64,000 nt of DNA, from positions 2,048,001 through 2,112,000 of the forward strand of contig CAVZJV010000014.1 of assembly GCA_963775685.1 (NCBI GenBank), written 5' to 3'. Both the position numbers and the translations under genes were made by a program. The DNA comes from Candidatus Bathyarchaeota archaeon. GTDB lineage: Archaea; Thermoproteota; Bathyarchaeia; Bathyarchaeales; Bathycorpusculaceae. The notes under the pieces are model-generated. The model ran no database searches and was not told the origin of the DNA. It worked only from the letters and a program-made list of their open reading frames with translations. Of this stretch, positions 954-27,829 are shown in pieces; within the stretch, counting starts at the first letter, position 1, and every line of letters begins with the position of its first letter.

Positions 954-1769
954 ATGATGCTTAAAGCCCAATCCTTAGAAGACCAAATTCACCAAGCAAA
1001 CGTTGCAGTCCACCGCTTTGAAGCACCATACTATGAGCTTCTCCACCCTGAGGTTTACAGCAGGCAAGAACAAAGAAGAATTACCGCCAAACTGAAAGCA
1101 GTTGACCAACAAATTGGAGACAACCAACGAAATGTCCTTGACGTAGGCGCGGGAACAGGCAACTTAACTGGGAAACTCCTGCAGATGGGCTATAGTGTGA
1201 CGGCAACGGATATTTCGCCTGAAATGTGTGCGGTTCTAAAAAAAAAGTATGCTCGCTACTTGCAAGATAAATTGACAGTGATTAACTCGCCTATAGAGGA
1301 CCTGAGTTTCGGCATGGGCGAGTTTGACTTGATAACATTTTATTCTGTGCTTCATCATTTGCCCGACTATTCTTCGGCTCTTTGCACTATTTGCGGATAC
1401 CTGAAAAAGAGCGGCGTAATGTACATAGACCACGAGGCATCCCCTTTCTACTGGAAGGGCGAGCCAAGCATACTTGCTAGCTTAGTTAAAGGAATATATT
1501 TTCATTCGAACCCCCTGATCAACAGCCTTTACTTCCGGTTTATTGACTTAAAAGTTCCCACTATTGATTATACACTGTCAGATTACTGGCACAAAAAAGA
1601 ACATGCCCTAAACCACCAAGCCGTAGCCCAAGTCTTTAAACAAAAAGGTTTTGAGTTTTCTAACCGAACAGATTACTATCAACACGCCACCTGGATTCCA
1701 AACCCGCTGTTTCCGCTTTATCAGCTTTTGTGCAGACCTGAAATGAGTTATTGGATAGCAAAAAAATAG
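954..1769 (+). CDS. Class I SAM-dependent methyltransferase
   Basis: VLDVGAGTG motif I, TDISPEM, FDLITFYSVLHH. Confidence 0.85.
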   Translation: MMLKAQSLEDQIHQANVAVHRFEAPYYELLHPEVYSRQEQRRITAKLKAVDQQIGDNQRNVLDVGAGTGNLTGKLLQMGYSVTATDISPEMCAVLKKKYARYLQDKLTVINSPIEDLSFGMGEFDLITFYSVLHHLPDYSSALCTICGYLKKSGVMYIDHEASPFYWKGEPSILASLVKGIYFHSNPLINSLYFRFIDLKVPTIDYTLSDYWHKKEHALNHQAVAQVFKQKGFEFSNRTDYYQHATWIPNPLFPLYQLLCRPEMSYWIAKK

Positions 1770-1783
1770 TCGGCAAACAAGGT

Positions 1784-2869
1784 TTATCGGAAATCTGATT
1801 GCGCCTTTTCCAGCATGCTTACGACGGGTAACTGGTATGGGCATTTTACTTCACATTCATAACACTTAATGCATCTGTCGGCTTTAACTTCTAAACCGTT
1901 GTAGAGTTTTTTAGCCCACCCCTTCAAGTGATAGACCTGAAAGAGCGAATGGAAACGTAGTATGGCTGCTATGTTGAGGTTTTGGGGGCACGGCAGGCAT
2001 TGTCCACAGTCTTGACAATAGTTTGTCCCAAGAATAAAGTTGAAACGTTCTTTTTCTTTAGCTGTCAATCCAGCGTAATGTTCGCCGGCTTTAGCTGCGA
2101 TTTCAACTTCGCCTATGGATCTTAATCCTGGAATAACAGAGGAGACATCCTGCGACAGAACATACATTAATGCGCTGTTAACCATCTCGTCGCTGCTTTG
2201 ACCCAGTACCGTTTTGAGTTCTGGCTCATCCGAAACCAACGAAAGCGAAGGACTGTAAAGACACGTTATCAGGGTTGATGTTTTGGCTGACAGCGACTTC
2301 ATCACCACAACGCCAACATCTTGCGCCTTTGAAGCAGGTAACAGCTCCTCTAACGCCTGTCTAGTTACAACGTTAAGCGGCACCAAAACCGTGTCAAATT
2401 CGCCGCTCAAAACTGCCCTATTTAGAACCCGCGGTTTGTGCCCCGTAATGCCGATAAAATCCACCAGCCCCTGCTTGCGTGCTTCTTTGCAGGTTTGCAG
2501 CGAACCATCCTCGCTCATGGCTTTAGCAAGGGTTTTCTCGTCATCAATTCCATGAAGCTGAATGATATCCAGCCTGTCGGTTTGGAGTCGTCTTAAACTT
2601 TGTTCAAAATCTTCAAGGGATTCCTTTTTAGTTCTTGCACCCGTCTTGGTGGCGATGACGCATTGGTCTCTAACATCTTGCAGAGCTGCGCCGATTTTTT
2701 CTTCGCTGTCCCCATCAAGTTTTGCAGTGTCAAAGTAGTTAATGCCTAAATCAAAAGCTTTTCTTACAACTCTAACCGCTTCAAGGGTAGTGAGCTCGGA
2801 TATCCATGTTCCACCAAACCCTACGACTGAGACTTGGAGGTTTGTTTTTCCAAGTCTTCTCTTCTGCAA
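1784..2869 (-). CDS. Aldo/keto reductase with C-terminal 4Fe-4S dicluster domain
   Basis: RRLGKTNLQVSVVGFGG, GINYFDTA, IATKT, LQTDRLDIIQLH; C-terminal CxxCxxCxPCP and CxxCxxCxxxCP. Confidence 0.85.
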   Translation of the reverse strand: MQKRRLGKTNLQVSVVGFGGTWISELTTLEAVRVVRKAFDLGINYFDTAKLDGDSEEKIGAALQDVRDQCVIATKTGARTKKESLEDFEQSLRRLQTDRLDIIQLHGIDDEKTLAKAMSEDGSLQTCKEARKQGLVDFIGITGHKPRVLNRAVLSGEFDTVLVPLNVVTRQALEELLPASKAQDVGVVVMKSLSAKTSTLITCLYSPSLSLVSDEPELKTVLGQSSDEMVNSALMYVLSQDVSSVIPGLRSIGEVEIAAKAGEHYAGLTAKEKERFNFILGTNYCQDCGQCLPCPQNLNIAAILRFHSLFQVYHLKGWAKKLYNGLEVKADRCIKCYECEVKCPYQLPVVSMLEKAQSDFR

Positions 2870-2879
2870 TCCGATGCAT

Positions 2880-4304
2880 CTACGCTATACCTATGGCTTT
2901 CCGCGTTCCACCTGTGAGTCTTCGTTTCGCAAAGTTTAGGGCGCCTTCCCGGCGGACACGTTTAAGAATCTGCTTTGGGGTCATGTTGAACTCTTTGAAG
3001 AACCGCCGTTGAACCGCCATAAGTGAATTGTAGTCGTACTCGTCGGTTTTTACGCTCAATAAAAACTCGTCTAACTGGTCGTATTTTTTGGATTCTAAAA
3101 CTTCTTGGTATAGTTTGCTGTCTGGGTTGGCTATGAAAACGTTAAAGATACACCAGTCTGGGTTTAATTTCTTAGCGAACTTGAGCGAGGCTTCCATGTC
3201 CTTCAAGGTTTCATCGGGGACACCTAGCATGAAAGAGCAGGCGGTTTTTATGTCGTTTTTGCGGCAGAGCTTAAACGCGTTCTCTATTTGCTTCAGCTTT
3301 GTGTCTCTACCTATACGCTTGAGAACTTTCTCTGAGCCAGATTCAACGCCAAACCAAATGGTTTTGCATCCAGCTCTCTTCATCGCGACCAAAAGATCTT
3401 GATCGACCAAATCCACGCGGGTGTCGCAAACCCATTCCAAATCAAGCTTTTCCTTCACCATCAAGTCGCAGAGTTCAAGGGTTTGTTTTCTTCTGAGGGT
3501 AAAGTTATCGTTTATGAAGTAGATGCCTTTTGTGCCGTATTTGCTTTGCAGATCCTTTATTTCGCCGATGACTCTTTGAGGACTGAACCCTCGGCAGATG
3601 TTTCCCCAGAGCTTTTTGGTTTCGCAGAAACCGCAGTGATAGACACATCCGCGGCTGATGCTCATGACGTCGGCGGGTTTAACGTTTAAGTATTCGATTG
3701 TGCGGTCGTAGAGTTCAAGCGGCAACAGGGTCCTTGCAGGGTATGGAATTTCGTCCATGTTTTCTATGAATTTGGGCGGATTTTTGATGTTAACTCCTGC
3801 ACGCCTGTAAGCTACGCCTGGGATTGAGATGGTGGCGGCAGATTCAGCGCCATTTACGATGCAGGTGGCAAGCTCTGTAACTGCTCTCTCGCCTTCACCC
3901 ATAACTACATAATCAATCTCTGGGTTATCGAGTAAACTATCAGGCACATAAGAAGCATGCCATCCTCCTACAACTATTCTGGAGGTTGGCAAAGCCTCTT
4001 TTATGGCTCGAGCCGTTTCTATGCAACGTCGATAGGTGGCTGAACCACAAGTAATTCCGACAATTGTCGGATTTGTCTTTCTGACTAATTGCTTGACTTC
4101 TTCAATCGGCTTCTTCATGAGGTAGTTGTCGAGCATCTGAACTTGAAAACCTGCTTTTTCGAGTGCAGCAGCAACATACATTAAGCCGATGGGAGGTAAC
4201 CGTTTGCCAAGATACCATGCGCCGTTTTCAGGCGGGGCTGTAGTCATGAGCAGGATGTTTTTGTTTTCATTTTCAATACCCTGTTTGTTGGTTTTGGTAG
4301 CCAC
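2880..4304 (-). CDS. Cobalamin-binding radical SAM protein (class B methylase-like)
   Basis: N-terminal B12-binding domain (PPIGLMYVAAAL, VVGGWHA, VVMGEGE), SRGCVYHCGFC (CxxxCxxC), DDNF-like INDNF, FGVESG. Confidence 0.9.
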   Translation of the reverse strand: MATKTNKQGIENENKNILLMTTAPPENGAWYLGKRLPPIGLMYVAAALEKAGFQVQMLDNYLMKKPIEEVKQLVRKTNPTIVGITCGSATYRRCIETARAIKEALPTSRIVVGGWHASYVPDSLLDNPEIDYVVMGEGERAVTELATCIVNGAESAATISIPGVAYRRAGVNIKNPPKFIENMDEIPYPARTLLPLELYDRTIEYLNVKPADVMSISRGCVYHCGFCETKKLWGNICRGFSPQRVIGEIKDLQSKYGTKGIYFINDNFTLRRKQTLELCDLMVKEKLDLEWVCDTRVDLVDQDLLVAMKRAGCKTIWFGVESGSEKVLKRIGRDTKLKQIENAFKLCRKNDIKTACSFMLGVPDETLKDMEASLKFAKKLNPDWCIFNVFIANPDSKLYQEVLESKKYDQLDEFLLSVKTDEYDYNSLMAVQRRFFKEFNMTPKQILKRVRREGALNFAKRRLTGGTRKAIGIA

Positions 4305-7718: not shown

Positions 7719-8834
7719 TTACGTCTCTAACAGTATTCTTTTTATTGTTTCAACCAGTATCTGATTGTCTTTTGCTGATCTTACGGTGACTCGAAAGTGG
7801 TGGTCGTCTAAACCCATAAATGTGCAGCAATCGCGGATTAGGATGCGCTCTTGCGCTAACAATTCTTTAATCATGGTGGACGTGCTTTTTTTGGTCTCTA
7901 TTTTTACGAGCAGAAAGTTGGTTACGGATGGGTAGACGTGTAAGCCTTCGATTTCGCTTAAGTTTTTGGCAAGTGCTACGCGTTCTTTGGCGATAGTTTG
8001 CTTGGTGTTTTCGATGAATTCTTTGTCTTTGAAAGCTGCAAGTGTGACTTGACATGCTAAGCCATTTATGCTCCATGGCAGCCGAGTGGTTTGCAGCTTG
8101 TCGATGAGGGTTCCAGCGGCGATTGCGTAACCGAAACGTATGCCTGCCATACCATAGAACTTGGTGACTGAACGGATGACAAAGAGGTTCTCGTAATCTT
8201 TCACCATACCCGCCAAGGTGTTGTTTAAACTCTCTTCCGCAAACTCAATATAGTTCTCGTCCACGCTGAAAATGATGTCTTTTTTATTACAATACTTGAC
8301 CAGATCCGCGAGTGCTTCTTTGCTGTATAGCGTACCTGAGGGACTGTGTGGGTTACAAATGCACAAAATCTTCGTGTCGTCTGTAATTGCCTTCTTGATT
8401 TTATCTATTTCCAACCCAAAGTCTTGGGGCAATTGGAGAAACACTGGTTCTCCGCCAACTCGTAAAGCTGCCTTCTCGTACTCCGAAAATGAGGGTACAG
8501 GAATCAACGCTTTGAAGCCCCGTGGCAAAATCTCTGTAATCATGTAAATAAGTTCGATCGAACCGTTACCCAATAGAAGGTTTTCTGGTTCCACACCCTG
8601 CCCAACGTACTCGGCGATTTCTTTTTTGAACTCAACAGGGTTCGGGTCAGGATAATACCGGATTAACTTAGCATTCTGTTTTACAGCTTCGACGGCTTTT
8701 GGTGATGGTCCGAGAAAGTTTATGGGTCCGCTGAACTCGAGCACATCTTCGAGAGGTATGTTATATTTTCTGCTAAAGCCCCAGATGTCGCCACCGTGGC
8801 TAACGAACCTGCGTTTCTTACAGTTGCTAGACAA
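7719..8834 (-). CDS. cobD: Threonine-phosphate decarboxylase CobD (HisC/CobD PLP family)
   Basis: N-terminal HGG, YYPDP, GNGSIELI, CNPHSPSG, DENY, RSVTKFYGMAGIRFGY (PLP lysine); other cob genes nearby. Confidence 0.75.
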   Translation of the reverse strand: MSSNCKKRRFVSHGGDIWGFSRKYNIPLEDVLEFSGPINFLGPSPKAVEAVKQNAKLIRYYPDPNPVEFKKEIAEYVGQGVEPENLLLGNGSIELIYMITEILPRGFKALIPVPSFSEYEKAALRVGGEPVFLQLPQDFGLEIDKIKKAITDDTKILCICNPHSPSGTLYSKEALADLVKYCNKKDIIFSVDENYIEFAEESLNNTLAGMVKDYENLFVIRSVTKFYGMAGIRFGYAIAAGTLIDKLQTTRLPWSINGLACQVTLAAFKDKEFIENTKQTIAKERVALAKNLSEIEGLHVYPSVTNFLLVKIETKKSTSTMIKELLAQERILIRDCCTFMGLDDHHFRVTVRSAKDNQILVETIKRILLET

Positions 8835-9372
8835 CTTTCTCTGTCTCCATCAATCGGGTTATTTCCTTTTCTACATGTAGATGCGCTTTATAGTGGGCGT
8901 TGTAGAGGTTAACAACCTTGTACAGCCAATAAATTACCCCGATTCCCAAAGTAACTAAGGTTATTATCGCATAAGTTTTTATCGGTATTGTCTGAGGCAT
9001 GAAAATTCGCTCAGGTAGTGTAGATGCAAGGAAGGCATCTTGGCTGCGTTCATGCATCACCAAATCTTTGGATAATAGGTACACTATTATGAAAACTGGC
9101 ACGATAAGGATGATGCTTGCAGCCCAGACTTTTGCATTCATCGCTTTGAATCGCTGGCTTTCTGCAGGAGGCTTCCTTGAAGCACTTTTCAAGTAAAATG
9201 TTATCTGTTTTTCTATTGCTTGGTCTTTTTGGAAATGTCTGTTTCTGCCTTCGACCAATCGGTAAAACATCGGGAAAAACGCTAGTCCGAAAGTGACAAC
9301 TGCCCCCAAAAACCACATGGAAAACCAAACCTTTCGGTCGGCTTTAACTTTAATTTTCAATGTGTTTTCCAT
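8827..9372 (-). CDS. Membrane protein with duplicated DUF4234-like motif
   Basis: AVVTFGLAFFPMFY and LVTLGIGVIYWLYK...N repeats; overlaps the cobD start by 8 bp. Confidence 0.55.
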   Translation of the reverse strand: MENTLKIKVKADRKVWFSMWFLGAVVTFGLAFFPMFYRLVEGRNRHFQKDQAIEKQITFYLKSASRKPPAESQRFKAMNAKVWAASIILIVPVFIIVYLLSKDLVMHERSQDAFLASTLPERIFMPQTIPIKTYAIITLVTLGIGVIYWLYKVVNLYNAHYKAHLHVEKEITRLMETEKVV

Positions 9373-9455: not shown

Positions 9456-10154
9456 ATGAGCTCAAGGGAAATGCTGCTTTCCGTCATAATTCCAGTGTAC
9501 AACGAGGAATTAACCATAGGCAACATTATCGACCGCACCAAGTTGGCATTGCAGCAAATAGGTTTAACTTTTGAAATCATCGTTGTAGATGACCGATCAT
9601 ACGACAGGTCCCTTGAAGTCGCCAAAAAATGCGGCGTTAAACTTTTGACATTAAAACAGCACTTGGGCAAGGGCTACGTGCTAAGGGCTGGGTTTGCCAA
9701 AGCTAAAGGTAACATTATTGTCACCATCGACTCCGACGGGTCACATCGACCAGAAGAACTAAAAGAAGTGTTAACGCCCCTTCTGGAGAATAAGGCAGAC
9801 CTTGTTATCGGTTCCAGATACATGAATAAAAAACCGGTCGCGGCTCGAAAACTAAATGCTTTTGGGGTTCGCATATTCAACTTCTTAATCCAGCTTTTAA
9901 CCCGAACCCCCACCACTGATTCCCAGTCAGGGTACCGTGCCATGAAACGGCAGGTTCTAAACAAGCAAAAGTTATACGCTCGGGAATACGAAATAGAATC
10001 TGAAATGCTAGTTAAAACAGTTAAGGCTGGTTTTAGGGTGGCTGAGGTGCCGATTAGTTTTGAGCAGCGCACTTATGGACATTCAGGCGTGGATCCACTG
10101 TGGGATGGCTCTAAAATCCTCTATTCAATTGTACTTGCTCATTTTAGGGGATAA
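9456..10154 (+). CDS. Glycosyltransferase family 2 (DPM1-like polyprenol-phosphate glycosyltransferase)
   Basis: SVIIPVYNEE, VVDD, GKG, DSDGSH, VIGSR, DSQSGYRA. Confidence 0.9.
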   Translation: MSSREMLLSVIIPVYNEELTIGNIIDRTKLALQQIGLTFEIIVVDDRSYDRSLEVAKKCGVKLLTLKQHLGKGYVLRAGFAKAKGNIIVTIDSDGSHRPEELKEVLTPLLENKADLVIGSRYMNKKPVAARKLNAFGVRIFNFLIQLLTRTPTTDSQSGYRAMKRQVLNKQKLYAREYEIESEMLVKTVKAGFRVAEVPISFEQRTYGHSGVDPLWDGSKILYSIVLAHFRG

Positions 10155-10159
10155 CAAAA

Positions 10160-11149
10160 TTGACTGAACCTGAAGCCCCTAAAGTTTCAATCATAGTTGC
10201 AGCCTACAACAGCCAAGACACCATCGAAGAATGCCTCAAGTCTATTTTAGCGCAAAATTATCCCGCAGGTTTTTTTGAAGTCATCGTTATGGACGGCGGC
10301 TCCAAAGACGACACCGTCAAAATCGCAAAGAAATTTCCCTTAAAAGTCTTTTCCATACGATTAAACGCCCCAGCCGCCTACAATTACGCAATGAAAATCA
10401 GCGCTCATCAAGTCCTTGGCTTTATAGATGCGGACGCTAAAATCGAGAAGGAATGGCTAAACAAACTTACCCCTCATATTGCTGAATCCAAAGTTGCTGG
10501 AGTCAGTGGCAGTATCGAAACTTGGAACCGTGATAACCTGTGGGCAAGAAGCATCGGTTACGAGCTCAAAAACCGTTACAGCCGCATAGGCAAATACACA
10601 GGGCGCATCGCAACCATGAACCTGCTCCTGAAAAAATCGGTTATCGAAGAAGCGGGTGGATGGGACGAGAAGCTGCCAAGCCAATACGATACTGACCTTG
10701 GATTTCGAATCAGCGGCAAAGGCTACAAAATCGCTTATGAGCCAAGCGCGGTTTGTTATCATTTTAACCGACCAACGCTTAAGGTATACTATCGGCAGCA
10801 ACTTCAATACGGCAAAAACACCCTAAAACTCTACTTCAAACACGGGTATTTGGCTCGGGGCGACGAAATCACCGATGTAGGCATGAACATTCAGCCAATC
10901 TTGCTATTGGGGGTGGTGGCGTTTTTCTTTGTTGGAATAGTACCCGCGCTTAGGTTGCTTTGGGTTGTTTCAGGATTAATTTTTTTGGCGATGGCGGTTT
11001 ACTTTGTTTATTCAGCTGCGAAGTTAGCAGTTAAGTTCCATGACTCATCTGCACTGCGCCTCTTTGTGCTCTACTTTGTGAGGGCTGGAGCCTGGTTTGA
11101 TGGCGCCATAATAACTACCGCAAGATACCTTGCAGGAAAGGACCAGTAA
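10160..11149 (+). CDS. Glycosyltransferase family 2 with C-terminal transmembrane helices
   Basis: VSIIVAAYN, DGGSKD, FIDAD, GGWDE, hydrophobic C-terminus. Confidence 0.88.
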   Translation: MTEPEAPKVSIIVAAYNSQDTIEECLKSILAQNYPAGFFEVIVMDGGSKDDTVKIAKKFPLKVFSIRLNAPAAYNYAMKISAHQVLGFIDADAKIEKEWLNKLTPHIAESKVAGVSGSIETWNRDNLWARSIGYELKNRYSRIGKYTGRIATMNLLLKKSVIEEAGGWDEKLPSQYDTDLGFRISGKGYKIAYEPSAVCYHFNRPTLKVYYRQQLQYGKNTLKLYFKHGYLARGDEITDVGMNIQPILLLGVVAFFFVGIVPALRLLWVVSGLIFLAMAVYFVYSAAKLAVKFHDSSALRLFVLYFVRAGAWFDGAIITTARYLAGKDQ

Positions 11150-17920: not shown

Positions 17921-17959
17921 ATACCTACAACCTTACCAATAGAGAATATAGGGTTTGTC

Positions 17960-18904
17960 GTGACTTGGATGGATGACTTGAAAGGAAAGAAAGTGTTAGT
18001 TACTGGTGGAGCAGGGTTCATAGGCTATCACCTATGCAGCAAGCTGTCGCAGTTAACTGGTGACCTGACTATTTACGATAACTTGTCAAGCGGCACCATG
18101 AAAAACGTTCAGGATGTTCCAAAAGCTAACTTCGTTAAAGGCGACATCTTAGACCTTAACACGTTGTGTATCCAAGAGAAGGCTGATTTGATTTACCATT
18201 TGGCAGCGCAAGTTGTTGTTGGGTACTCTATGGAGAATCCGCTTGTTGATTTTGAAACAAACGCTAAGGGGACTCTCCATGTTCTAGAAAAAGCACGTAA
18301 AGACGATGCCAAAGTAGTGTTTGCTTCCAGCGCGGCAGTATATGGTAACCCAACAGTCTTTCCTACTCCTGAAGCATATGGTTTTCATCCATTCTCATGC
18401 TACGGCTTATCCAAAGTAGTCGGTGAAGAATACTGCCAAATGTACCATGAACAATACGGTTTAGACATCGTCATTACAAGGTTCGCTAACGTTTACGGAT
18501 TGAGATGTCATGGTGTCATCCATGATTTCCTAGACAAGATGACTAAAGACCAAAACAAGCTAGTAATTATCGGTACAGGTCAGCAATGCCGCGACTTCGT
18601 GCATGTTTCCGATGTCGTGGAAGCTTTGGTTACGGTAGGTTCCAAAGACTCGGCTAACGGCGAAGTCTACAACTTAGGCCTTGGCAAAACCGTATCCATA
18701 CTTGAATTAGCCAAAATGATGCTAACTATCCTTAACCTCCAAAACAAAACCGTCATTGAAACCACGGGTATTTCTTGGCAGGGTGACGTAACCAAAATTT
18801 GGTTTGACATCTCCAAGGCCAAAAAAGAACTTAAATGGACTCCAAAAGTGACCTTGGAAGACAGCATAAAGGAAGTCATTACTGACAGGAAAATCAGCAT
18901 ATGA
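17960..18904 (+). CDS. NAD-dependent NDP-sugar epimerase/dehydratase (GalE-like)
   Basis: VTGGAGFIG, HLAAQ, SSAAVYG, YGLSK, RFANVYG, RDFVHV. Confidence 0.9.
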   Translation: MTWMDDLKGKKVLVTGGAGFIGYHLCSKLSQLTGDLTIYDNLSSGTMKNVQDVPKANFVKGDILDLNTLCIQEKADLIYHLAAQVVVGYSMENPLVDFETNAKGTLHVLEKARKDDAKVVFASSAAVYGNPTVFPTPEAYGFHPFSCYGLSKVVGEEYCQMYHEQYGLDIVITRFANVYGLRCHGVIHDFLDKMTKDQNKLVIIGTGQQCRDFVHVSDVVEALVTVGSKDSANGEVYNLGLGKTVSILELAKMMLTILNLQNKTVIETTGISWQGDVTKIWFDISKAKKELKWTPKVTLEDSIKEVITDRKISI

Positions 18905-19812
18905 GCCATCCAGCACCAGCCAGAGGCCTAATCGCGCTACTGAGGCTTCCCTATTGGCTTATGACTGGCGGCTTGGCATTGCTTACGGCGTTCGCCATCT
19001 TGAAAGGTAACCTTTCAAGTGTTCAAACAACATTGGGCGCTTTGAGTTTTTGGGAAGTTGCAGGTCTAACCTTTTTTTCGATGGCATTCATAGCGTCCGC
19101 GGGGTTTGCCATAAACGACTACTTTGATCGTGAAAGCGATGCTGTCATCAAACCCAAACGCCCCCTTCCATCGGGCGCGCTTTCACTCACACAAGTTGTT
19201 GCAGTTTCAGTTGCTCTCTTTGCTTTAGGTTTAGTTATGGCTTTTTTTGTTAACTTGCTCAGTTTTGCCATAATTGCTGTTGACTCGGTTCTACTCTTGC
19301 TTTACTCCTACTTGGTGAAGCGGAAGTCAGGGTTCGCCGCTAACCTGTTAATGGGTGTTTTGACGGGTACAGCCTTCATCTACGGACAAGCTACCGTTTC
19401 AGGCACAATCACCTTGGTTTCGTTAAGCCTATATCCAATAGCTTTTGGAACCATAGGTGGCAATGTCCTTCGAGACATTCTAAGCTTAGACGGCGACTCC
19501 AAAGTCGGTTATCCCACATTACCGCAGAAAATTGGCAGCATCAGCGCAGCCAAAGTTGGTGCCATATTCTTTCTATTAACTGGTCTTTTGGCTCCTCTTC
19601 CAGCTATTCCTTTTTTCACAGGGCATTTTACGGTGTATTATTTACCGCTAATTCTGCTGTGGAGCATACTGTTAATTTACTCCTCTATCCGTCTATTCGT
19701 GTCCACTTCAACCATAGCGGATATACGCAAGTATGAGCGTTTGGTAACGATGTCAATGATGTTGCTTCCGCTTGCACTCATCGTTGAGGCTGTCTTTGGA
19801 TGGTTAATATGA
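18901..19812 (+). CDS. UbiA-family prenyltransferase, DGGGP-synthase-like
   Basis: INDYFD...D..KP.RPLPSG motif, multiple TM helices, D....DGD..G..TLP; ATGA overlaps at both ends. Confidence 0.8.
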   Translation: MSHPAPARGLIALLRLPYWLMTGGLALLTAFAILKGNLSSVQTTLGALSFWEVAGLTFFSMAFIASAGFAINDYFDRESDAVIKPKRPLPSGALSLTQVVAVSVALFALGLVMAFFVNLLSFAIIAVDSVLLLLYSYLVKRKSGFAANLLMGVLTGTAFIYGQATVSGTITLVSLSLYPIAFGTIGGNVLRDILSLDGDSKVGYPTLPQKIGSISAAKVGAIFFLLTGLLAPLPAIPFFTGHFTVYYLPLILLWSILLIYSSIRLFVSTSTIADIRKYERLVTMSMMLLPLALIVEAVFGWLI

Positions 19813-21275
19813 GCGAAACCAAAAGCATCTGTCCCGAATGCCAAAAGAAAATAGACGCACAATTACGGGCAGCCAATGGCAAAATCCAAATCACAAAACA
19901 ATGCCCTGAACACGGAGATTTCAAAGCTACCCACTGGCAAAGCACACCAATATACAATCACATGCAAAAATACGACCAGTTCCAGTATCTCGGCGACCTC
20001 AACGCGCCCAAAAACCCCGACGGTTGCCCCTACAAATGTGAAACCTGCAACAAACATGCTTCAGGTACAGTCATCGGAGTAATCGACGTAACTAAACGCT
20101 GCAACTTCAAGTGTGCAGTTTGCTTCTCCACTTTTCCAGATCAGGAAGCGGATTATGAACCCACTAAAGAAGCCCTTATAAACATGCTCGAGTTCGCAGC
20201 CAAAGCTAACCCCAAACCCCCTGCAATTCTGTTCTCAGGCGGAGAACCACTTGAGCGGGAAGATATGCCTGAAATCATAGCTGCTGCTCACAGACTTAAG
20301 TTCATGACTATTCTCGCGACCAATGGGACGCATTTGGTTGACACCCCTGGGTTAGCGAAGAAGCTTAAAGATAGCGGCTTAAACATTGTTTATTTGTCGT
20401 TTGACAGTTTTCATGAGGAATTTAACAAAAGGGTCAGAGGACGAGAACTCTTAGATATGAAGCTCAAGGCTATTGATGTTTGTCGCATGCACGACATGGA
20501 AATAATTCTTGTCAATACCCTCATGAAGAGCTTAAACGATAAAGAAGTCGGCGACATGATTCGTTTCGCCGCCAAAAACACCGACATCGTCCGAGGTTTA
20601 ATCTTCCAGCCAATTGCATTTACGGGTAGGGCAACTGAGAACCCGTTCCGCGAAAACTTTCGGGAATGGAGCTTTGCTGAGGACGTTGAAAAACAAACAA
20701 GTGGCGAAATAAAATCTACTGATTTGTATCCGATGTCGGTTATGACTTCGCCGATAAAAATTATGCGTAAATTTATGCAGAAGCCTTGGCCGCTTTTCTC
20801 CTGCAGCCCACAATGCGGTATAGTTAACTGGGTTTACGTATCGAAAAGCGGCAAAATGTTCCCTATCAACCGTTTTGTAAACTTCGACCGATTTTTTAAC
20901 AGCATACGCAAAACAGCCGAAAATGCCGAATCTAAAGGCAAAATGTCCCTTCTCTCATCGCTATTTATGGCTTCTATGCTGTCGATGGACATGTTTTTAG
21001 TTACTAAAGAAGTCGGTATGCACACTCTGATGAAATCAATTATGCGGATGCACCTTGCTCCATCCTATCAATCGCTGGGCAAAATCCGGAGGAGAATATT
21101 CCTCTTGGGCTGCATGGCATTCATGGATTCATACAACTTCGACGTTAACCGCGTAAGACGATGCGTTGTGCATTACATTACGCCGGATTTGAAGATTATT
21201 CCATTCTGCGCATACAATAATGTGCACCGGGTTGCGATAGAAAAAGACTATGCGGGTAGACACAAGATAGCTTGA
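19809..21275 (+). CDS. tes: Tetraether lipid synthase (Tes / GDGT-MAS, MJ0619 family) homolog
   Basis: SICPEC...KQCPEHG (rubredoxin-like), GCPYKCETCNKH, IDVTKRCNFKCAVC, FQPIAFTGR, CMAFMDSYNFDVNRVRRCVVHY.TPD.KIIPFCAYN; ATG at 19809 overlaps the upstream TGA. Confidence 0.85.
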   Translation: MSETKSICPECQKKIDAQLRAANGKIQITKQCPEHGDFKATHWQSTPIYNHMQKYDQFQYLGDLNAPKNPDGCPYKCETCNKHASGTVIGVIDVTKRCNFKCAVCFSTFPDQEADYEPTKEALINMLEFAAKANPKPPAILFSGGEPLEREDMPEIIAAAHRLKFMTILATNGTHLVDTPGLAKKLKDSGLNIVYLSFDSFHEEFNKRVRGRELLDMKLKAIDVCRMHDMEIILVNTLMKSLNDKEVGDMIRFAAKNTDIVRGLIFQPIAFTGRATENPFRENFREWSFAEDVEKQTSGEIKSTDLYPMSVMTSPIKIMRKFMQKPWPLFSCSPQCGIVNWVYVSKSGKMFPINRFVNFDRFFNSIRKTAENAESKGKMSLLSSLFMASMLSMDMFLVTKEVGMHTLMKSIMRMHLAPSYQSLGKIRRRIFLLGCMAFMDSYNFDVNRVRRCVVHYITPDLKIIPFCAYNNVHRVAIEKDYAGRHKIA

Positions 21276-21392: not shown

Positions 21393-21917
21393 TTAGTTTA
21401 TTACTTGAATTTTTAGAACGCAGTAGTTCTGAGTAAAGGTGAGTGCGCCGTCGCTGCCCTGTTGCCAGAGCTCAAAAACCACCGAGTAGTCCCCTAAAAG
21501 TTTCTGGGTGATGCTCGCTGTTTTCTCCACTGATTTCCCATCGTTACTAATACTGCCCATATCTATGATTTGACTTGGCTGGACAGCAATTGGAAACGTG
21601 GTGAAGTTCTCCACAATTTTTACCTGTACCTGATAGCTGGCGGTCTCTCTCATGTGGTTTTCTACGTTAACGGAGACGCTGAAGGTGGTATTCTGGTTGG
21701 CGACTAAAACTTTTGGGTAATCAACCGCTTTATTGTGGGCATCAAGCAAGTAAATGGTGTTGTAGGATTCTGCTGGAGGCCTAAGCCAAACGTAGTACCC
21801 TATAACCGTGGCGGAAACGATAATTAACGCAAGGAAAATTGCAACAGCATAGCCCTTTTCCTCATCTAAACCGATTTTTCTTCCAATTCTCTTGGCACTT
21901 TCTAAACGTATCCGCAT
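21393..21917 (-). CDS. DUF1616-like membrane-anchored protein
   Basis: Single TM helix, E.YNTIYLL......DYP, V.N, FELW motifs; start uncertain. Confidence 0.6.
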   Translation of the reverse strand: MRIRLESAKRIGRKIGLDEEKGYAVAIFLALIIVSATVIGYYVWLRPPAESYNTIYLLDAHNKAVDYPKVLVANQNTTFSVSVNVENHMRETASYQVQVKIVENFTTFPIAVQPSQIIDMGSISNDGKSVEKTASITQKLLGDYSVVFELWQQGSDGALTFTQNYCVLKIQVIN

Positions 21918-22602
21918 CCATAAATCCCCTAAACATAGTGCTAAATATCTCAATTCCCGACTTAAATCTTCTCAGTTTAGGTCTTCCATATTTTCGTGTT
22001 TTGTAAGTGGTGGGGACCTCAATCATGCTGTAGCCTTCCTTGGCGAATTGAATGAGCATCTCTGTTGCATAAGCCATATCGTATGCTTTGAGTTCCACGT
22101 TGTCGATGGCGTCGTGGGATATTGCTCGGAAACCCGACTGGGTGTCGCTAAGAAATTGGCTGAAAAAGAAATCGTAGAAGGTGGTGATGACTTTGTTGCC
22201 GATAAAATTCATAAGTCCCATGGCTTTGTTGGGGTCGTACATGCGGGTGGCTAAAACCATGTCGGCGTCTTTCTCAATCATTTTGGTTATCATGCGGTTG
22301 ATGTGTCTTACTTCGTAGGTTCCGTCGCCGTCAACCATTATGATGATGTTGCCTTTTGCGTTCTTCATGCCTGTCATTAGTGCTAAGCCATAACCGCGTC
22401 TAGGTTCTATGATGAGCTTGCAGTAGCCTAAGCCTTGAACTATTTCTTTAGTGCCATCCGTCGAGTTTCCGTCAACAACGATGATTTCCTTAGGATAAGA
22501 CAAATCATTATGAATTGTAGAGACGGCTTCCAGAATATTACCCGCTTCGTTGAGTGTTGGAATTACCACCGAAACCATTTCAACTTTTGACGTCATTGGC
22601 AC
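21862..22602 (-). CDS. Glycosyltransferase family 2 (DPM1-like)
   Basis: VSVVIPTLNEA, VVDGNSTDGT, GYG, DGDGTY, DTQSGFRA. Confidence 0.9.
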   Translation of the reverse strand: MPMTSKVEMVSVVIPTLNEAGNILEAVSTIHNDLSYPKEIIVVDGNSTDGTKEIVQGLGYCKLIIEPRRGYGLALMTGMKNAKGNIIIMVDGDGTYEVRHINRMITKMIEKDADMVLATRMYDPNKAMGLMNFIGNKVITTFYDFFFSQFLSDTQSGFRAISHDAIDNVELKAYDMAYATEMLIQFAKEGYSMIEVPTTYKTRKYGRPKLRRFKSGIEIFSTMFRGFMDADTFRKCQENWKKNRFR

Positions 22603-22641
22603 ACATCCATTTCAAGAGGCTAATATGTTTCCGTCACATGG

Positions 22642-23799
22642 TTAAATAAGTTCTTCGTATATTTCAACAAGCCTTTCAACGTTTGCATCCCAGCTGTATT
22701 TTTCTTCCATCATGGCGCGAAGTTCTTTTTTGCGTGAACAAAAATCAATAGCTGCAAAATCCAAAACTGCCTTCACAAGTAGTTCTGGTTGGTTAGGCGG
22801 CACCAGTTTCCCATAATCCTCTGTGAGAACCTCTCTTATCCCCCCAACGTCGGTGGCTATAACTGGGAGTCCGCATGCCATTGCTTCAAGCGCAACCAGC
22901 GGCAGGCCTTCACCTGATTTAGAAGGCAACACAAACAAGTCTGCAACATTGTAGTACGATGGCAAATCCTCATCGCTGACAAACCCTGATAGCCTGAAGT
23001 TAGCTTCAATCCCCAATTGGGTAACGTGTAACTTGACACTTTCCATATCTGGACCTTTACCGACAACCAAAAATACAATTTTAGGGTTCCTTTTAACCGC
23101 AATGTTCGCAGTGTCTATTAGTGTGTCGACACCGTTTTTGTAAACAAGTCGTCTCACTGTTAGAACTACGGTGGCGTGTTGGGGAATCCCGAGTTTTTTC
23201 CGCATTTCCTCGCGTTTTCCCGTTATTGGTCGAAACCTTGCTAAGTCAACGCCGTTGTAGATGACGCTGACTTTGCTTGGTTTTGCGCCTAACCTTAACA
23301 CATAATCTTTAGTTGCGCCGCTTATCGCGATGATTTTGTCTGCGGTTTTGAGGTTTTGTTTTCCCACTGTCAAATCGTTTAAACGCTCAACATTGTCAAA
23401 GATATTGTTGTAGTCGATGAAGGTGTTGTGTTGGGTGAGTACGAAAGGTTTGCTGCATAGTTTGGCTAATTTACCTGCTGTGAGTGAGGTTAGGTATGGA
23501 TGTCCATGAGCGTGGACAATCTTGCTTGATTTCACTGCTTTAACAAAGGTTGGAAAGCTGGGCACGGTTGGAATTGAGTAAGGAATGCCGAGGCGGAACC
23601 CTGTGTTGAGTGATTCATAACATTCGACAGGCACCCCATCGACCATGTAGTGTTTAGGTGTTTCTATTCTGTTGGTTACTACCATAGGTGCAAAATTTCT
23701 CTTCTGTAGACGCTTGCTTTGTTCATTAACCACCTTCTCTATTCCGCCAACATGCGGCAAGAAAGTGTGTGTAACAATGCAGAGGCGAATTTGAACCAT
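22642..23799 (-). CDS. Glycosyltransferase family 4
   Basis: PHVGGIE, HAH, YNGVD, EGLPLVALEAMACGLPVIATDVGG. Confidence 0.9.
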   Translation of the reverse strand: MVQIRLCIVTHTFLPHVGGIEKVVNEQSKRLQKRNFAPMVVTNRIETPKHYMVDGVPVECYESLNTGFRLGIPYSIPTVPSFPTFVKAVKSSKIVHAHGHPYLTSLTAGKLAKLCSKPFVLTQHNTFIDYNNIFDNVERLNDLTVGKQNLKTADKIIAISGATKDYVLRLGAKPSKVSVIYNGVDLARFRPITGKREEMRKKLGIPQHATVVLTVRRLVYKNGVDTLIDTANIAVKRNPKIVFLVVGKGPDMESVKLHVTQLGIEANFRLSGFVSDEDLPSYYNVADLFVLPSKSGEGLPLVALEAMACGLPVIATDVGGIREVLTEDYGKLVPPNQPELLVKAVLDFAAIDFCSRKKELRAMMEEKYSWDANVERLVEIYEELI

Positions 23800-23899
23800 G
23801 GAAGCCCAACGGGTAAAACCTCAATCGGCAGACTATTATAATCTTCTGGTAAACAATGGCAAATGGTCTGCAGGGGGTTCTGGCACATTTTTGTTGAAA

Positions 23900-24391
23900 T
23901 TATGGTGGGGTGTCTATGCTCTTCAAAGCACGGGTATACACGTTTGAGGATGCTCCAGCAACCAAAGCGCCTATGGCGTCGTTAGTGAGCGGCGGAAGTT
24001 TTTTTAGGATGCCTGGTTTGGCTTGGTCAAAGCGTACGAACTCAAACATGCCTTTTGACCCGCCGATGTAGGTGGCTATAGCTATCCCTATAAGTTCGTC
24101 AGCGACCAGCCCCGGTCTGCCCATAAATCTCTCCCTGGTTAATCCTGGAATTCGTCCGTTCTCTGCTTCTTCTTGGGCGTGGAAGGCGGCAACGATTAGG
24201 GTGGAGACGTTAACGTCAGTTAGGATGTCGAGGAGTTCGGATCTGAGCATTTCGGAGGCTTTTTCTTCGGTTTCTATGCCTGGGTGCGGAACGTACATTT
24301 CGAGAGCTGCGTGAATGAGGCTTTTGAGGGAAATGTCTTTTTTTTCCAGGTACTCAAGCAAAGGAGGGATTTTATCGGTCATGTGATTCAA
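23900..24391 (-). CDS. cobZ: Alpha-ribazole phosphatase CobZ (PgpA-like, archaeal type)
   Basis: DVNVSTLI.AA, LVADELIGIAIATYIGG.KG.FEF.RFD..KPGIL..LPP..DAIGALVAG. Confidence 0.75.
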   Translation of the reverse strand: MNHMTDKIPPLLEYLEKKDISLKSLIHAALEMYVPHPGIETEEKASEMLRSELLDILTDVNVSTLIVAAFHAQEEAENGRIPGLTRERFMGRPGLVADELIGIAIATYIGGSKGMFEFVRFDQAKPGILKKLPPLTNDAIGALVAGASSNVYTRALKSIDTPP

Positions 24392-24691
24392 CCTTTGTTT
24401 TAGAAGTTTGGGACTGTTTTAAGTGTTATGTGGCAGGTTTACCGTAACGCTTATATGAAAAGGTTGGATAAACCAACCAAATGGTATGTGTGATAATTTG
24501 ATAAACATTAAGAAAACATTGCCAGTTCAAGCCAAAGTTTTACTGAAAGGTAAATTATCTGAAAGTTTGACAAGTAAAACCTTATTTTCATGTTTATCTG
24601 TTTCTATACATAAGAGTCAATTTTACGTTCACCCAAAACCCATAACCCAAATAATGGTTGAGGGTGAAATTAGTTAGGAGGAAAAAACAAG

Positions 24692-25363
24692 ATGAAAGTT
24701 GTTGCTTCATGGAGCGGCGGCAAAGACAGCGCCTACGCATACTTCTTGGCCACCCAGCGGGGTCACCAAATAATTAACCTATTAACTATGATGATGAGCG
24801 AAGAAAAATCAAATTTCCACATGATACCCTCAGGAATCCTTGATGCACAAGCAGAAGCTATCGGGATACCCTTGATTAAAAAAACTACATCGGCAGCAAA
24901 GTACGAGGAGGATTTCAAGGCTGCTCTGCTCGAATGCAAAGCAAAGGGCGCGCAGGGTTTAGTTACGGGGGACATCTATGAGGTTGCTGGGCATGAGGAA
25001 GGTTGGCTTGGGCGAATCTGCAAAGAAGTAGGCTTAACCCCTGTTAAGCCGCTTTGGATGGGTGACACAAAACAAATCTACCTTGATTATCTAAAAACTG
25101 GCTTCCAAGCCACCGTTGTGCGCACCAAACTTGAGTTGCTTGGCTTAGATTGGCTGGGTAGACCATTGAACCGAAAGTTCTATGACGACATCCTTAAACT
25201 TGGCAATGTTGACGCATGCGGCGAAGGCGGTGAATACCACACCGTCATAACCGATGGACCAACCTTCGAGAAAAAGATTGAAATCCAAGAAACACAGAAG
25301 CATAAGCTTGAGGGCGGTTTTGGATACTTGGAAATCAAGAGATTCAAAGTTATGCCCAAGTAA
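24692..25363 (+). CDS. DUF71/COG2102 PP-loop ATP-dependent amidoligase (diphthine-ammonia ligase family)
   Basis: SWSGGKDS PP-loop, PLW, DACGEGGEYHT...DGP.F; RBS AGGAGG upstream. Confidence 0.85.
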   Translation: MKVVASWSGGKDSAYAYFLATQRGHQIINLLTMMMSEEKSNFHMIPSGILDAQAEAIGIPLIKKTTSAAKYEEDFKAALLECKAKGAQGLVTGDIYEVAGHEEGWLGRICKEVGLTPVKPLWMGDTKQIYLDYLKTGFQATVVRTKLELLGLDWLGRPLNRKFYDDILKLGNVDACGEGGEYHTVITDGPTFEKKIEIQETQKHKLEGGFGYLEIKRFKVMPK

Positions 25364-25375
25364 AGGGAAACCAAA

Positions 25376-26464
25376 ATGGACGTACTGATTTCGAATAACA
25401 CGTTGAAGGCCAAAGCTTTCCTTGACGAAATAGAAGCCAAAAACCCACTTTTCCTCTGCACCATAGCCACAACTGAAACCGGCAAAATCCCAGGGTTATC
25501 CGCGGCTGGTGCCAATCCTGACTTTACCGATTTCACCCCGCCCGCAGATGCGGAGCTGCTACTGTTGGGCAAGTGCAAATCTATTCAAGGCGTCCCAATT
25601 ACACCCGACGGCATTCCGACGCCTGGTTTGATAACCACATCAGCCCTGCATTTAGCTGACATACCTGTGCTGGTTGTCAACGGCGGCGTGAAGGTTAAGC
25701 CTCAGATTCCCTACGTTGATTTAGGTGGCAATCCTGGGCGAGACATCCGTACCGGCGACTCTGTTGACAATGTCGAAGAAGTCATCGAACGCGCCAAGGT
25801 CTTAGGTGAACAACTAGCGAAAGTGTCGGATTATCTTGTAATAGGTGAGAGCATTCCCGGTGGAACCACAACAGCGCTCGGCGTCCTGTCGGCTTTGGGC
25901 GTTAACGCGCAGGGCAAAGTCAGTAGTACTCTTCCTGAGAATCCTCATAATTTAAAGGCAGAAGTGGTTGCGGCAGGTTTGAAGGCAGCAGGAGAAAAAT
26001 TCGGTAGCCTAAAACGCAGCCCCATAAAAGCTGTGTCATGCGTGGGTGATCCCATGATGGCAGCAATGGCTGGTTTGGTTATCGGTGGAGCAAGACAGGG
26101 ACCTGTTTTGATGGCTGGTGGAACCCAGATGACTGCAGTTTTGGCTGTAATTAATGCCTTGAATCCTGAGTCACTCTGCAACGTGGCTGTGGGAACGACT
26201 CGGTGGGTGGTAAATGACGTGAAGTCCGACATTTGCGGCATCGTTAAGCAGTTCTGCCAAGTGCCGATAATAGCGGCAGACTTGGACTTTGGTCCCTCAA
26301 AGTATCCGGGTTTACAGATCTATGAAACAGGACTTGTCAAGGAGGGCGTTGGAGCGGGCGGAGCCTCGATTGCGGCGATGTCAAAGACCGGTGGTGCAGT
26401 TTCAAAGGATATACTTCTTAAGGAAATAGAGCGTAACTATGCTTCACTGATGAACAAAAAGTGA
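25376..26464 (+). CDS. cobT: Nicotinate-mononucleotide-dependent phosphoribosyltransferase CobT (archaeal MJ1598/TIGR00303 type)
   Basis: T.T..IPGLSAAG, TP.ADAE, GESIPGGTTTA, GDP, LMAGGTQM, VKEGVGAGG. Confidence 0.9.
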   Translation: MDVLISNNTLKAKAFLDEIEAKNPLFLCTIATTETGKIPGLSAAGANPDFTDFTPPADAELLLLGKCKSIQGVPITPDGIPTPGLITTSALHLADIPVLVVNGGVKVKPQIPYVDLGGNPGRDIRTGDSVDNVEEVIERAKVLGEQLAKVSDYLVIGESIPGGTTTALGVLSALGVNAQGKVSSTLPENPHNLKAEVVAAGLKAAGEKFGSLKRSPIKAVSCVGDPMMAAMAGLVIGGARQGPVLMAGGTQMTAVLAVINALNPESLCNVAVGTTRWVVNDVKSDICGIVKQFCQVPIIAADLDFGPSKYPGLQIYETGLVKEGVGAGGASIAAMSKTGGAVSKDILLKEIERNYASLMNKK

Positions 26465-26471
26465 AGCGCGC

Positions 26472-27224
26472 TTGGTCATTAGACAACTAAAAAATCTTCT
26501 TTCTTTCTTAACCGTTTTCCCAGTCGCCATGGACGGGAATCTTCTTACTGACTGCGCACAAAACATGTGGGCTTTTCCGCTATTTGGTGCGTTCCTCGGT
26601 TTCTTGGCGGGATTGTTTGGTTTGGTGGCTTTCCGCCTTTTGCCCAGCATAGTTGCGGGCGCACTGGTTTTGGCTCTGCTGCTATGGATGACAGGGTTGC
26701 ATCATACTGATGGGCTGCTGGATTTTGGCGACGGCGTTATGGCACACGGTTCAACGGAACACAAAATTGACGTCATGCATGACCAACTCACAGGCGCCGG
26801 CGGCTTAGCCCTGGGAATCCTGACTATATTAATCTCTGTGCTAGCGTTTGGGCAACTAAACATTAGCCTTATTCTTCCTTCAGTGATTGTGGTTGAGCTC
26901 TGCGCCAAGCTTTCGATGGTTGTGGCGGCTTGGGCAGGCAAATCAGTGCATCAAGGTATGAATTCGCCGTTTCTTGAAGCCATGCACGGACGCGGCGGCA
27001 ACCTGCGCTTGGGGGCGGCACTAATAATCTCTTTCGCTGCGGGATTGCTTTTGTTGAAGTTTGCAGGAATCCTTGTTGTTTTGGCCGGTATAATTACAGG
27101 TTTAGTGATGGTCGCTGTTGCCCACGAGCACTTCAAAGGTGTCACAGGCGACGTGTTTGGCGCCACAAACGAGTTGACAAGGCTGGTTTGCGTGGTTGTT
27201 TTGGTGGCGGTGGTTATACGGTAA
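26472..27224 (+). CDS. cobS: Cobamide synthase CobS (copy 2)
   Basis: LLSFLTVFP, TGLHHTDGLLDFGDG, MHD...GAGG, GVTGDVFGATNE. Confidence 0.88.
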   Translation: MVIRQLKNLLSFLTVFPVAMDGNLLTDCAQNMWAFPLFGAFLGFLAGLFGLVAFRLLPSIVAGALVLALLLWMTGLHHTDGLLDFGDGVMAHGSTEHKIDVMHDQLTGAGGLALGILTILISVLAFGQLNISLILPSVIVVELCAKLSMVVAAWAGKSVHQGMNSPFLEAMHGRGGNLRLGAALIISFAAGLLLLKFAGILVVLAGIITGLVMVAVAHEHFKGVTGDVFGATNELTRLVCVVVLVAVVIR

Positions 27225-27829
27225 TCGCACTTGTTATGGCTGGCGGCAGGGGCACCCGTATGAAGCTGGCGCAGGAGAAACCACTCATTGAAGTTTGCGG
27301 CAAACCCGTCATCGAATATGTTCTCTCAGCGCTCAAAGAAGCCAAAAAGATTGATCACGTAATTGTTGCCACAACTAAATGCACACCTAAGACCACAAAG
27401 CTTATGCATCAACTTGGCGTAGAAGTCATCGAAACCCCCGGAAAAGACTACGTTTCCGACATGGGCTACGTCGTTCAAACCCTAAAGCTGGGTGTTTTCT
27501 TAGCTATCGCGGCTGACCTTCCATTGGTGAGGAGCCAAATGATTGACGCAGTTTTGGAACGTTACGAACGCTGTGGCAAACCTGCGTTGACGGTTGCGGT
27601 TCCTTTAGAAACTAAGGCAAAGTTGGGCATGTGCATCGAATACTCCTTCAAACTAGACGAAAAGAACGTGGTTCCAGTGGGCATAAACGTCATCGATGGA
27701 AGCAAACGGTACGGCGACGAATGGCTCGACCAAGACATCTACCTGCTAAACTTCCGAGAACTAGCCGTCAATATCAACACGGTGCCGGAGTTGCAGCTTG
27801 CAGAACGATTGCTGTCTCAGAAGCGGTAG
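27218..27829 (+). CDS. cobY: CobY-like nucleotidyltransferase (copy 2); start codon ambiguous (ACG at 27218 or ATG at 27236)
   Basis: VIALVMAGGRGTRM..EKPL, TPGKDYVSD, ADLP, PVGINVIDG, NINT. Confidence 0.8.
   Translation, partial: TVIALVMAGGRGTRMKLAQEKPLIEVCGKPVIEYVLSALKEAKKIDHVIVATTKCTPKTTKLMHQLGVEVIETPGKDYVSDMGYVVQTLKLGVFLAIAADLPLVRSQMIDAVLERYERCGKPALTVAVPLETKAKLGMCIEYSFKLDEKNVVPVGINVIDGSKRYGDEWLDQDIYLLNFRELAVNINTVPELQLAERLLSQKR

Follow-up and report, generated by a model that had tools for sequence, protein, structure and literature searches.

In this study we focus on a gene island of a Bathyarchaeota genome, the right third of which lies in the stretch G000:C14:2048001-2112000 (64,000 nt, hereafter the window), with its genes at window positions 954-27829. 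Our analysis supports the view that the island is one conserved, co-inherited locus, in which genes for a membrane lipid stand among paralogs of cobamide (cob) genes. We place far more confidence in the island as a genuine pathway to a modified tetraether lipid than in any single fate, among those considered below, of its cobamide branch. For this branch we tentatively favour the possibility that an altered cobamide synthase, CobS1, moves cobinamide-phosphate onto a product of the lipid genes to give a lipid-tethered corrinoid. The most far-reaching structure, which we regard as possible and rather unlikely, would be a lipid-anchored corrinoid in which B12 has lost its nucleotide loop and is instead linked by a phosphodiester to a tetraether glycolipid that spans the membrane and is cross-linked and multiply methylated. 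The least certain element is the acceptor of CobS1, which may be the lipid itself or else a prenylated group that is tied into the membrane at a later step.

According to the list of open reading frames (ORFs) and to Pfam and NCBIfam profile scans, all listed genes at 954-27829 are intact ORFs of the families named for them: a methyltransferase, an aldo-keto reductase iron-sulphur protein (AKR-FeS), a B12-binding radical SAM enzyme, a CobD-like protein, three GT2 and two GT4 glycosyltransferases, a DUF362 protein, a SPASM radical SAM enzyme, two CobY-like proteins, two CobS, an NDP-sugar epimerase, a UbiA prenyltransferase, a tetraether synthase (Tes), a CobZ-like protein, a DUF71 protein and CobT. 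Every gene listed by an earlier, sequence-only reading of this DNA was thus recovered. The 27-kb extent given there covers only part of the island, which totals about 75 kb, some 46 kb of them upstream of the window. This upstream part holds seven more B12-binding radical SAM enzymes, cbiB and cbiZ (6 kb and 46 kb before the window, respectively), two more DUF71 genes, two SPASM enzymes, a HemN/HutW-like enzyme, an amidohydrolase, an AsnB-like/nitrilase pair, RnfC/D-like genes, a putative MtrH, named by eye, with a B12-binding protein, and two large membrane proteins, one of which resembles GT-C glycosyltransferases by language-model features only. The same reading had remarked on the lack of corrin-ring genes, cbiB, cbiP and cbiZ. 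Indeed, no such family was found among the scanned ORFs of the window, which is true of the window only: besides the upstream cbiB and cbiZ, contig C11 carries genes for the tetrapyrrole and the corrin ring, comprising a cluster of five PF00590 methylases and others identified by eye, as well as a canonical cobD-cbiB pair.

Fourteen homologs of B12-binding radical SAM proteins were found in the genome by BLAST, eight of them within 47 kb and seven of these eight upstream of the window; none of 200,000 random placements, which ignore local duplication, was as tight. The GC content (0.41-0.50 in 2-kb windows, 0.426 for the contig) gives no clear foreign-DNA signal, and Rfam returned no match at gathering scores in the window and the 60 kb upstream. 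With the SPASM gene as anchor, synteny was followed in 80 genome loci, many of them cut by contig ends, and neighbours were counted within 10 kb. The DUF362 gene was present in 78 of them, GT4a in 68, cobD in 61, cobS1 in 58, ubiA2 and Tes2 in 53, and the B12 radical SAM gene B12-H in 23, while beta-propeller genes were found in just 7 and 1 loci and are taken as passengers. Another Bathyarchaeia family has these genes as well, at 35-55% identity, and there nearly the whole island content fits in about 60 kb at 30-66% identity (G040, G207). The linkage claimed from the window thus goes beyond chance, and the genes are not unlinked in relatives.

Co-inheritance was examined in one draw of 200 genomes of the class, at least 85% complete. 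Island-type cobS was found in 28, namely 22 of the 31 genomes of its own family and all six of genus g16 (one g16 copy being a contig-end fragment). All 28 also hold canonical cobS, and 40 others gave only canonical-level cobS matches. Tes2 (at least 463 bits), UbiA2 and the B12-G/C/A clade of radical SAM enzymes (at least 500 bits) are present in the identical 28 genomes, and the island cbiB in 27 of them, plus G160; a clear island cobD is present in the 22 genomes of the own family, and in g16 the gene was assigned by its position. The carriers that have a subgroup or genus name belong to Bathy6 / Ca. Bathycorpusculum (subgroup 6), except one MCG group-1 record. Of the earlier proposal, which is partly supported, the part upheld is that of one conserved locus, with second tetraether enzymes, a Gms-like enzyme, Gmm-like B12 radical SAM enzymes and glycosyltransferases inherited together.

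CobS1 (17063..17920, minus strand) has the loop-2 sequence HxDGxxDxxN, so that it fails the HxDxxxDxxD motif at the Asp89 position, together with AHxW in place of MHD and an insertion of about 25 residues. The Asn and AHxW were found in all 16 aligned copies, while 9 of 9 canonical copies keep Asp, and the Asn holds in a further 57/57 and 80/80 loci retrieved with a search pattern that did not include that position. CobS2, the canonical copy of the window, retains both Asp89 and MHD. The remainder of the CobS1 site is preserved: H80, D82, D86, D229 and the glycines of the G45 region are kept, and the loop-6 motif GxxGDxxG is present with G260, D261 and G264 invariant. CobS1 scores 102.5 bits on Pfam PF02654 (cut-off 23.2) and 108.6 on TIGR00317 (cut-off 110), for which CobS2 reaches 156, and the gene is under purifying selection (nonsynonymous pN 0.09-0.20 against synonymous pS 0.49-0.71). 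A structure model was obtained with a pLDDT of 93; its best match in a fold search was a CDP-diacylglycerol synthetase (Z 8.2, rmsd 4.1, 166 aligned residues), a score within the helical-bundle background. Among the best 150 representatives matching a CobS1 profile, 18 have Asn at this position, 117 Asp and 1 Glu, with 14 unparsed. Seven clusters of the Asn type were looked up, of which two are named Bathyarchaeota and one carries names of bacterial metagenome-assembled genomes (MAGs) on contigs shorter than 10 kb. In the Salmonella enzyme Asp89 is essential, the D89A variant giving no growth, and the membrane location of CobS is described as unexplained (PMC8092220). We propose, from its sequence, that CobS1 is a neofunctionalised CobS; automatic annotation labels both copies CobS, which masks the difference.

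The prenyltransferase gene ubiA2 lies within 1.5 kb of cobS1 in every locus whose flank is long enough, both in genomes (52 of 52) and in metagenomes (35 of 35), whereas cobY1 is found displaced or exchanged for cobY2. The cobY gene beside cobS1, usually translationally coupled to it, is cobY1 in 43 and cobY2 in 10 of 54 genome loci and is missing in 1, and in G017, G006 and G142 each cobY stands at the position of the other, both being retained. In the window the partner is CobY1 (16446..17066, minus strand), a cobinamide-phosphate guanylyltransferase-like protein whose closest Protein Data Bank (PDB) entry is CobY. On the plus strand follow an NDP-sugar epimerase/dehydratase (17960..18904, identified by profile scan and missing from the block in G560, G567, G530, G566 and G488), UbiA2 (18901..19812) and Tes2 (19800..21275).

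Tes2 reaches 464.5 bits on NF045702 (cut-off 450), compared with 674.2 for the housekeeping Tes at C14:1961454, with which it shares 36% identity. All four patterns searched in Tes2 (CxxC..CxxH, CxxxCxxC and the C-terminal M..C..HY..PFC) were found in 69 of 75 sequences; we take them to be the N-terminal metal, radical SAM and C-terminal cluster sites. UbiA2, a second prenyltransferase resembling digeranylgeranylglyceryl phosphate (DGGGP) synthase, is found in 28 of the 200 genomes. Numbered on the Methanocaldococcus jannaschii enzyme (M. jannaschii DGGGPS), it has G/N/S at R175/E176/D183 in 80 of 84 sequences (4 unparsed) and keeps motif 1 as well as D180 and D187. It scores 152 and 150 on NF009521 and NF009523 (cut-offs 296 and 269); a separate housekeeping DGGGPS candidate at C14:195460 gives 186 and 242, also below. 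In DGGGPS, the D183A substitution impairs the binding of geranylgeranylglyceryl phosphate (GGGP) and activity, and not the binding of geranylgeranyl diphosphate (PMC9385802), so the lack of D183 in UbiA2 points to an acceptor other than GGGP. A chlorophyll-synthase-like assignment of UbiA2 was also considered and rejected: one Ser is shared with ChlG, but the ChlG score is lower than that of the housekeeping copy.

The Gms-like SPASM protein (13297..14721, minus strand; 474 residues) combines an AhbD-like core with an N-terminal extension of about 110 residues, its best NCBIfam match being AhbD over residues 118-466. Near full-length matches, extension included, are found across Thermoproteota at about 37-51% identity. 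The DUF362 gene (PF04015; 12342..13304, minus strand) overlaps its stop. The GMGT synthase Gms has been described as an AhbD-like SPASM protein of more than 400 residues with an N-terminal extension of about 100 residues, its gene being paired with gmm (PMC11214058). It is thus a SPASM/Twitch enzyme and not a B12-binding one, which corrects the sequence-only reading, where Gms was placed among the B12-binding radical SAM enzymes. In 4 of 20 neighbourhoods fetched, the SPASM family adjoins a B12 radical SAM enzyme, and those Gms-adjacent enzymes are 32-41% identical to the B12 radical SAM enzymes of the island (33-36% for B12-H). B12-binding and radical SAM domains are present in all eight island copies, of which B12-H (2880..4304, minus strand; PF02310 and PF04055) is the one in the window; a quick tree of the family left the deep forks unsettled. 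In an NCBIfam scan made for B12-H alone among the eight, it reached 132 bits on the BzaD profile TIGR04385 (cut-off 450) and is therefore not BzaD. Multi-copy 'Gmm2' genes have been noted on shared scaffolds in Bathyarchaeia (bioRxiv 2023.10.20.563219), and Ted, a distant homolog, is a desaturase (bioRxiv 2025.10.20.683597), so methylation is likely for the island enzymes, yet other chemistry is possible. The link drawn earlier to butanetriol dibiphytanyl glycerol tetraethers (BDGTs) found no support. A review assigns these lipids to Baizosediminiarchaeum (PMC12694404), and the carriers named to subgroup are subgroup 6 apart from one; no defined gene for the methylase of the BDGT glycerol backbone was found in the literature searched.

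We then considered the corrinoid donor. CobD' (7719..8834, minus strand), a second CobD-like pyridoxal phosphate-dependent decarboxylase, scores 287.7 bits on TIGR01140 (cut-off 290.55) and reads NPHSP where canonical copies read NPNNP; island orthologs score 265-299, three of them at or over the cut-off. Clade-specific motif changes are found in CobD' and also in CbiB', the island CbiB. On TIGR00454 and NF045495, CobY1 (124.6 and 100.3) and CobY2 (150.5 and 116.6) are both below the cut-offs. The genome holds two copies each of cobD, cbiB, cobY, cobS and Tes, three UbiA and only one CobT. Among 150 family genomes at least 90% complete, CbiB was found in 79: the island copy alone in 19, the canonical copy alone in 3, and two or more matches, not checked individually, in 57. 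Among 49 genomes selected by the author, 11 (six of g16 and G560, G567, G530, G566 and G488) hold a single CobY, adjoining cobS1, and two CobS. Moreover, in G560, G567, G530 and G566 the island copies are also the sole CobD and the sole CbiB, and CobT is present. Of the cob genes, cobS alone is present twice in all island genomes examined. As the sole copies of these four genomes must feed canonical CobS, the product of the island CobD, CbiB and CobY is most likely ordinary cobinamide-GDP, and as both CobS would share one donor where CobD, CbiB and CobY are single, the branch is probably at CobS. A first idea suggested by the motif changes, that all four cob paralogs work outside corrinoid chemistry, was downgraded by these copy numbers.

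Archaea arrive at cobinamide-phosphate via CbiZ and CbiB (PMC3541065). The island is retained in G003 (a single contig, 97% complete) and in G207, where no hemC or ring-methylase match was obtained, which suggests that salvage suffices; both hold CbiZ and canonical CbiB. A de novo alternative tetrapyrrole route was rejected, as the island persists in these two genomes where hemC was not matched. In g16 the island includes a CbiA/CobB-type a,c-diamide synthase (384 bits, cut-off 261; G040:C1:447708-449180 and G207:C2:177782-179248), G207 being without a ring-synthesis match. No TIGR00313 CobQ/CbiP match over the cut-off was found in the window's genome, where the ring cluster holds one domain-permuted amidase (G000:C11:12731-14296; NF004921, 507 bits); this amidase or a DUF71 protein may cover the CbiP step. 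At the island edge, two GHL10/DUF4015-like proteins flank cbiZ (L003:12854-13735 and 15133-16032), and a homolog in G090 sits among B12 transport and salvage genes; they are possible cobamide-remodelling hydrolases.

The canonical finishing genes are at the other end of the block. A CobZ-like alpha-ribazole-phosphate phosphatase (23900..24391, minus strand), present as a single BLAST copy, scores 136.8 bits on TIGR03161 (cut-off 152.5), and the nucleotide-loop block DUF71-CobT-CobS2-CobY2 occupies 24692..27829 on the plus strand, with CobT at 401 bits on TIGR00303 (cut-off 240). DUF71 clusters elsewhere with B12 salvage genes (PMC3541065). A PF01261 TIM-barrel gene at 28723-29604 adjoins cobY2 in many relatives and has no NCBIfam match at 1e-25; the cobamide hydrolase CbiR belongs to the same superfamily (PMC7733943), but the gene more probably encodes an endonuclease IV. 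Beyond it, an energy-coupling factor (ECF) type transporter (29726-32195) comprises ATPases and a T component resembling CbiQ. Its second ATPase is split here (ORFs 30859-31329 and 30509-30856) and is a single ORF of about 273 residues in relatives.

From knowledge of the families, the island would build a cross-linked, methylated, glycosylated tetraether lipid. UbiA2 would form a geranylgeranyl ether on an acceptor differing from GGGP, Tes2 would join the chain ends and the Gms-like enzyme would cross-link the chains; the B12 radical SAM enzymes would add methyl groups or introduce desaturations, and GT2, GT4 and the upstream GT-C-like proteins would add sugars. In parallel, CobD', CbiB' and CobY1 would convert cobyric acid to cobinamide-GDP, from which CobS2 would make an ordinary cobamide, while CobS1 would place cobinamide-phosphate on another acceptor instead of alpha-ribotide. 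This acceptor is taken to be a product of the lipid module because cobS1 stays with ubiA2 and tes2 and because the acceptor site of UbiA2 seems changed.

Several points weigh against a lipid-tethered corrinoid. The B12 radical SAM enzymes need a cobamide anyway, and co-inheritance of cob genes is what one would expect if the lipid genes make a tetraether glycolipid and CobS1 separately makes or remodels a soluble cobamide, with another lower ligand or linker, for the eight enzymes. This explanation, the main rival, which we regard as possible and rather unlikely, agrees with a donor that looks like cobinamide-GDP, with the CbiZ, DUF71, BtuFCD-like and cobT genes in or beside the island, with the CobS-based remodelling known in Vibrio cholerae (PMC7733943) and with the BzaCDE-like genes noted at a B12 locus of Bathy-6 (PMC11697101). 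However, it gives no reason why cobS1, and not cobY1, cbiB' or the B12 radical SAM genes, stays fixed to ubiA2 and Tes2; only a single CobT is available to activate a base, and B12-H is far under the BzaD cut-off. The simpler idea that local cobamide finishing supplies the B12 enzyme, put forward from the window, is not supported in that form, leaving unexplained both the Asp89 loss and the canonical cobS that always accompanies the island copy. The adjacency of cobS1 and ubiA2 may reflect only a shared 39-bp divergent promoter, and in g16, outside the 52 and 35 loci counted above, two genes separate the cobS1 and ubiA2 blocks. The housekeeping DGGGPS also departs from the canonical sequence, at D180. 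The single-copy arguments use MAGs that are 92-97% complete and were chosen for being informative. The 28 carriers represent only two lineages and hence are not independent cases; moreover, in eight own-family genomes of genera other than g1, all lacking the island, neither kind of cobS was matched, nor was cobD or cbiB. Finally, no lipid-linked corrinoid was found in the literature searched, most subscription journals lying outside it.

The change from Asp to Asn is a classic inactivating one, and CobS1 may be a pseudo-enzyme. It could then be a membrane protein that binds cobamide without catalysis and serves to store corrinoid or hand it to membrane-associated radical SAM enzymes, as would fit the essential role of Asp89 in Salmonella (PMC8092220) and the Asn of every CobS1 parsed; we consider this improbable, as the other essential acidic residues are invariant, the Asn is itself invariant and not drifting, and cobY is usually coupled to cobS1. 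Slightly less improbable is a Kennedy-style reuse, with CobD' providing an aminoalcohol-phosphate, CbiB' joining it to an acid other than a corrin, such as a uronic acid, CobY1 activating the product and CobS1 transferring it as a lipid head group or linker. The clade-specific changes in all four paralogs, the persistence of the island in G003 and G207, and the amidation enzymes (AsnB-like, DUF71) and glycosyltransferases at hand would be in line with such a route, but G003 and G207 are able to salvage, and where the only CobD, CbiB and CobY stand beside canonical CobS and CobT, in four genomes, they must at least also take corrinoids. That the genes adjoin by chance, or through an inherited order with no coupling of function, is very improbable: blocks are indeed apart in G001, G010 and G201 and beta-propeller passengers have been inserted, but this explanation is largely refuted by joint presence and absence, with 28 carriers among 200 genomes and two families at 40-55% identity, as well as by the tight grouping of the B12 radical SAM genes, local duplication being ignored in that estimate.

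The remaining genes of the block are accessory or complete the glycosylation set. A class I SAM methyltransferase (954..1769, plus strand; PF08241) occurs in 25 of 80 related loci and is followed by the aldo-keto reductase with its C-terminal 4Fe-4S dicluster (1784..2869, minus strand; PF00248 and PF13534), a possible electron supply. A 181-residue membrane protein (8827..9372, minus strand), with weak DUF4234/DUF6693 matches only, belongs to the island core (63 of 80 loci). GT2a (AglJ/DPM-synthase-like), GT2b (a membrane GT2) and GT4a are closely spaced at 9456..12345 on the plus strand (63-68 of 80 loci), and a DUF1616 membrane protein, GT2c (polyprenol-phosphate GT-like) and GT4b, placed by profile scans and synteny, lie at 21393..23799 on the minus strand. 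Beta-propeller surface proteins are encoded at 72-830, 4932-7484 (a secreted passenger of 850 residues on the plus strand, with 69 BLAST paralogs in the genome, itself included) and 14895-16208 (a passenger on the plus strand, in 7 of 80 loci); an expansion of this family has been described (PMC11697101). Further along the window, a MraY-like GT4-family gene (PF00953), an STT3-like oligosaccharyltransferase in two ORFs and the CDP-archaeol synthase CarS (54517-57714 and 60989-61582) are apparently housekeeping. Near the housekeeping Tes, G000:C14:1965000-1980000 holds a separate sugar-modification cluster with a B12 radical SAM enzyme, GT2/GT4 and a UDP-sugar dehydrogenase.

No account of this cluster was found in the literature searched, most subscription journals being outside it. 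A Bathy-6 genome paper reported B12 genes at three loci and 7-20 B12 radical SAM enzymes per MAG, which it read as lignin-related; the word 'lipid' occurs 0 times (PMC11697101). New here are the full extent of the island, the eight-enzyme array and the copy-number test placing the branch at CobS. Under most readings, our work brings a defined gene set for a tetraether lipid in abundant archaea whose lipids are largely unassigned. If the acceptor of CobS1 is a lipid, this would be the first membrane-tethered corrinoid relative to the literature searched; a lipid-anchored corrinoid, if true, would be a cofactor-lipid conjugate of a new class and could mark this lineage as a specific biomarker.

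The island cob enzymes belong to the same families as the canonical set present in the same genome, and the island differs in adding a second CobS, with Asn89, AHxW and the insertion, fixed beside lipid genes. Tes2 passes the profile of Tes / GDGT-MAS (MJ0619, PDB 7TOL; PMC8941075) and keeps its metal and cluster motifs, but is a second copy, coupled to a second UbiA. A known second Tes copy, MA_1114, yielded only traces of macrocyclic archaeol (PMC8941075), so formation of glycerol dibiphytanyl glycerol tetraethers by Tes2 is not assured. The closest solved relative of UbiA2 is the M. jannaschii DGGGP synthase (PDB 6M31; PMC9385802), whose R175, E176 and D183 are replaced. Likened through published descriptions to the GMGT synthase Gms, the methylases Gmm/Cgm/Pgm and the desaturase Ted (PMC11214058; bioRxiv 2025.10.20.683597), the island has a SPASM enzyme with the AhbD-like core and extension of about 100 residues given for Gms, and its B12 radical SAM enzymes resemble those adjoining Gms-like genes. 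Unlike the Gms, Gmm and Ted systems, the island combines eight B12 radical SAM copies with a dedicated Tes, UbiA, glycosyltransferases and cob paralogs, and it supplies concrete candidates for the multi-copy Gmm2 enzymes of Bathyarchaeia.

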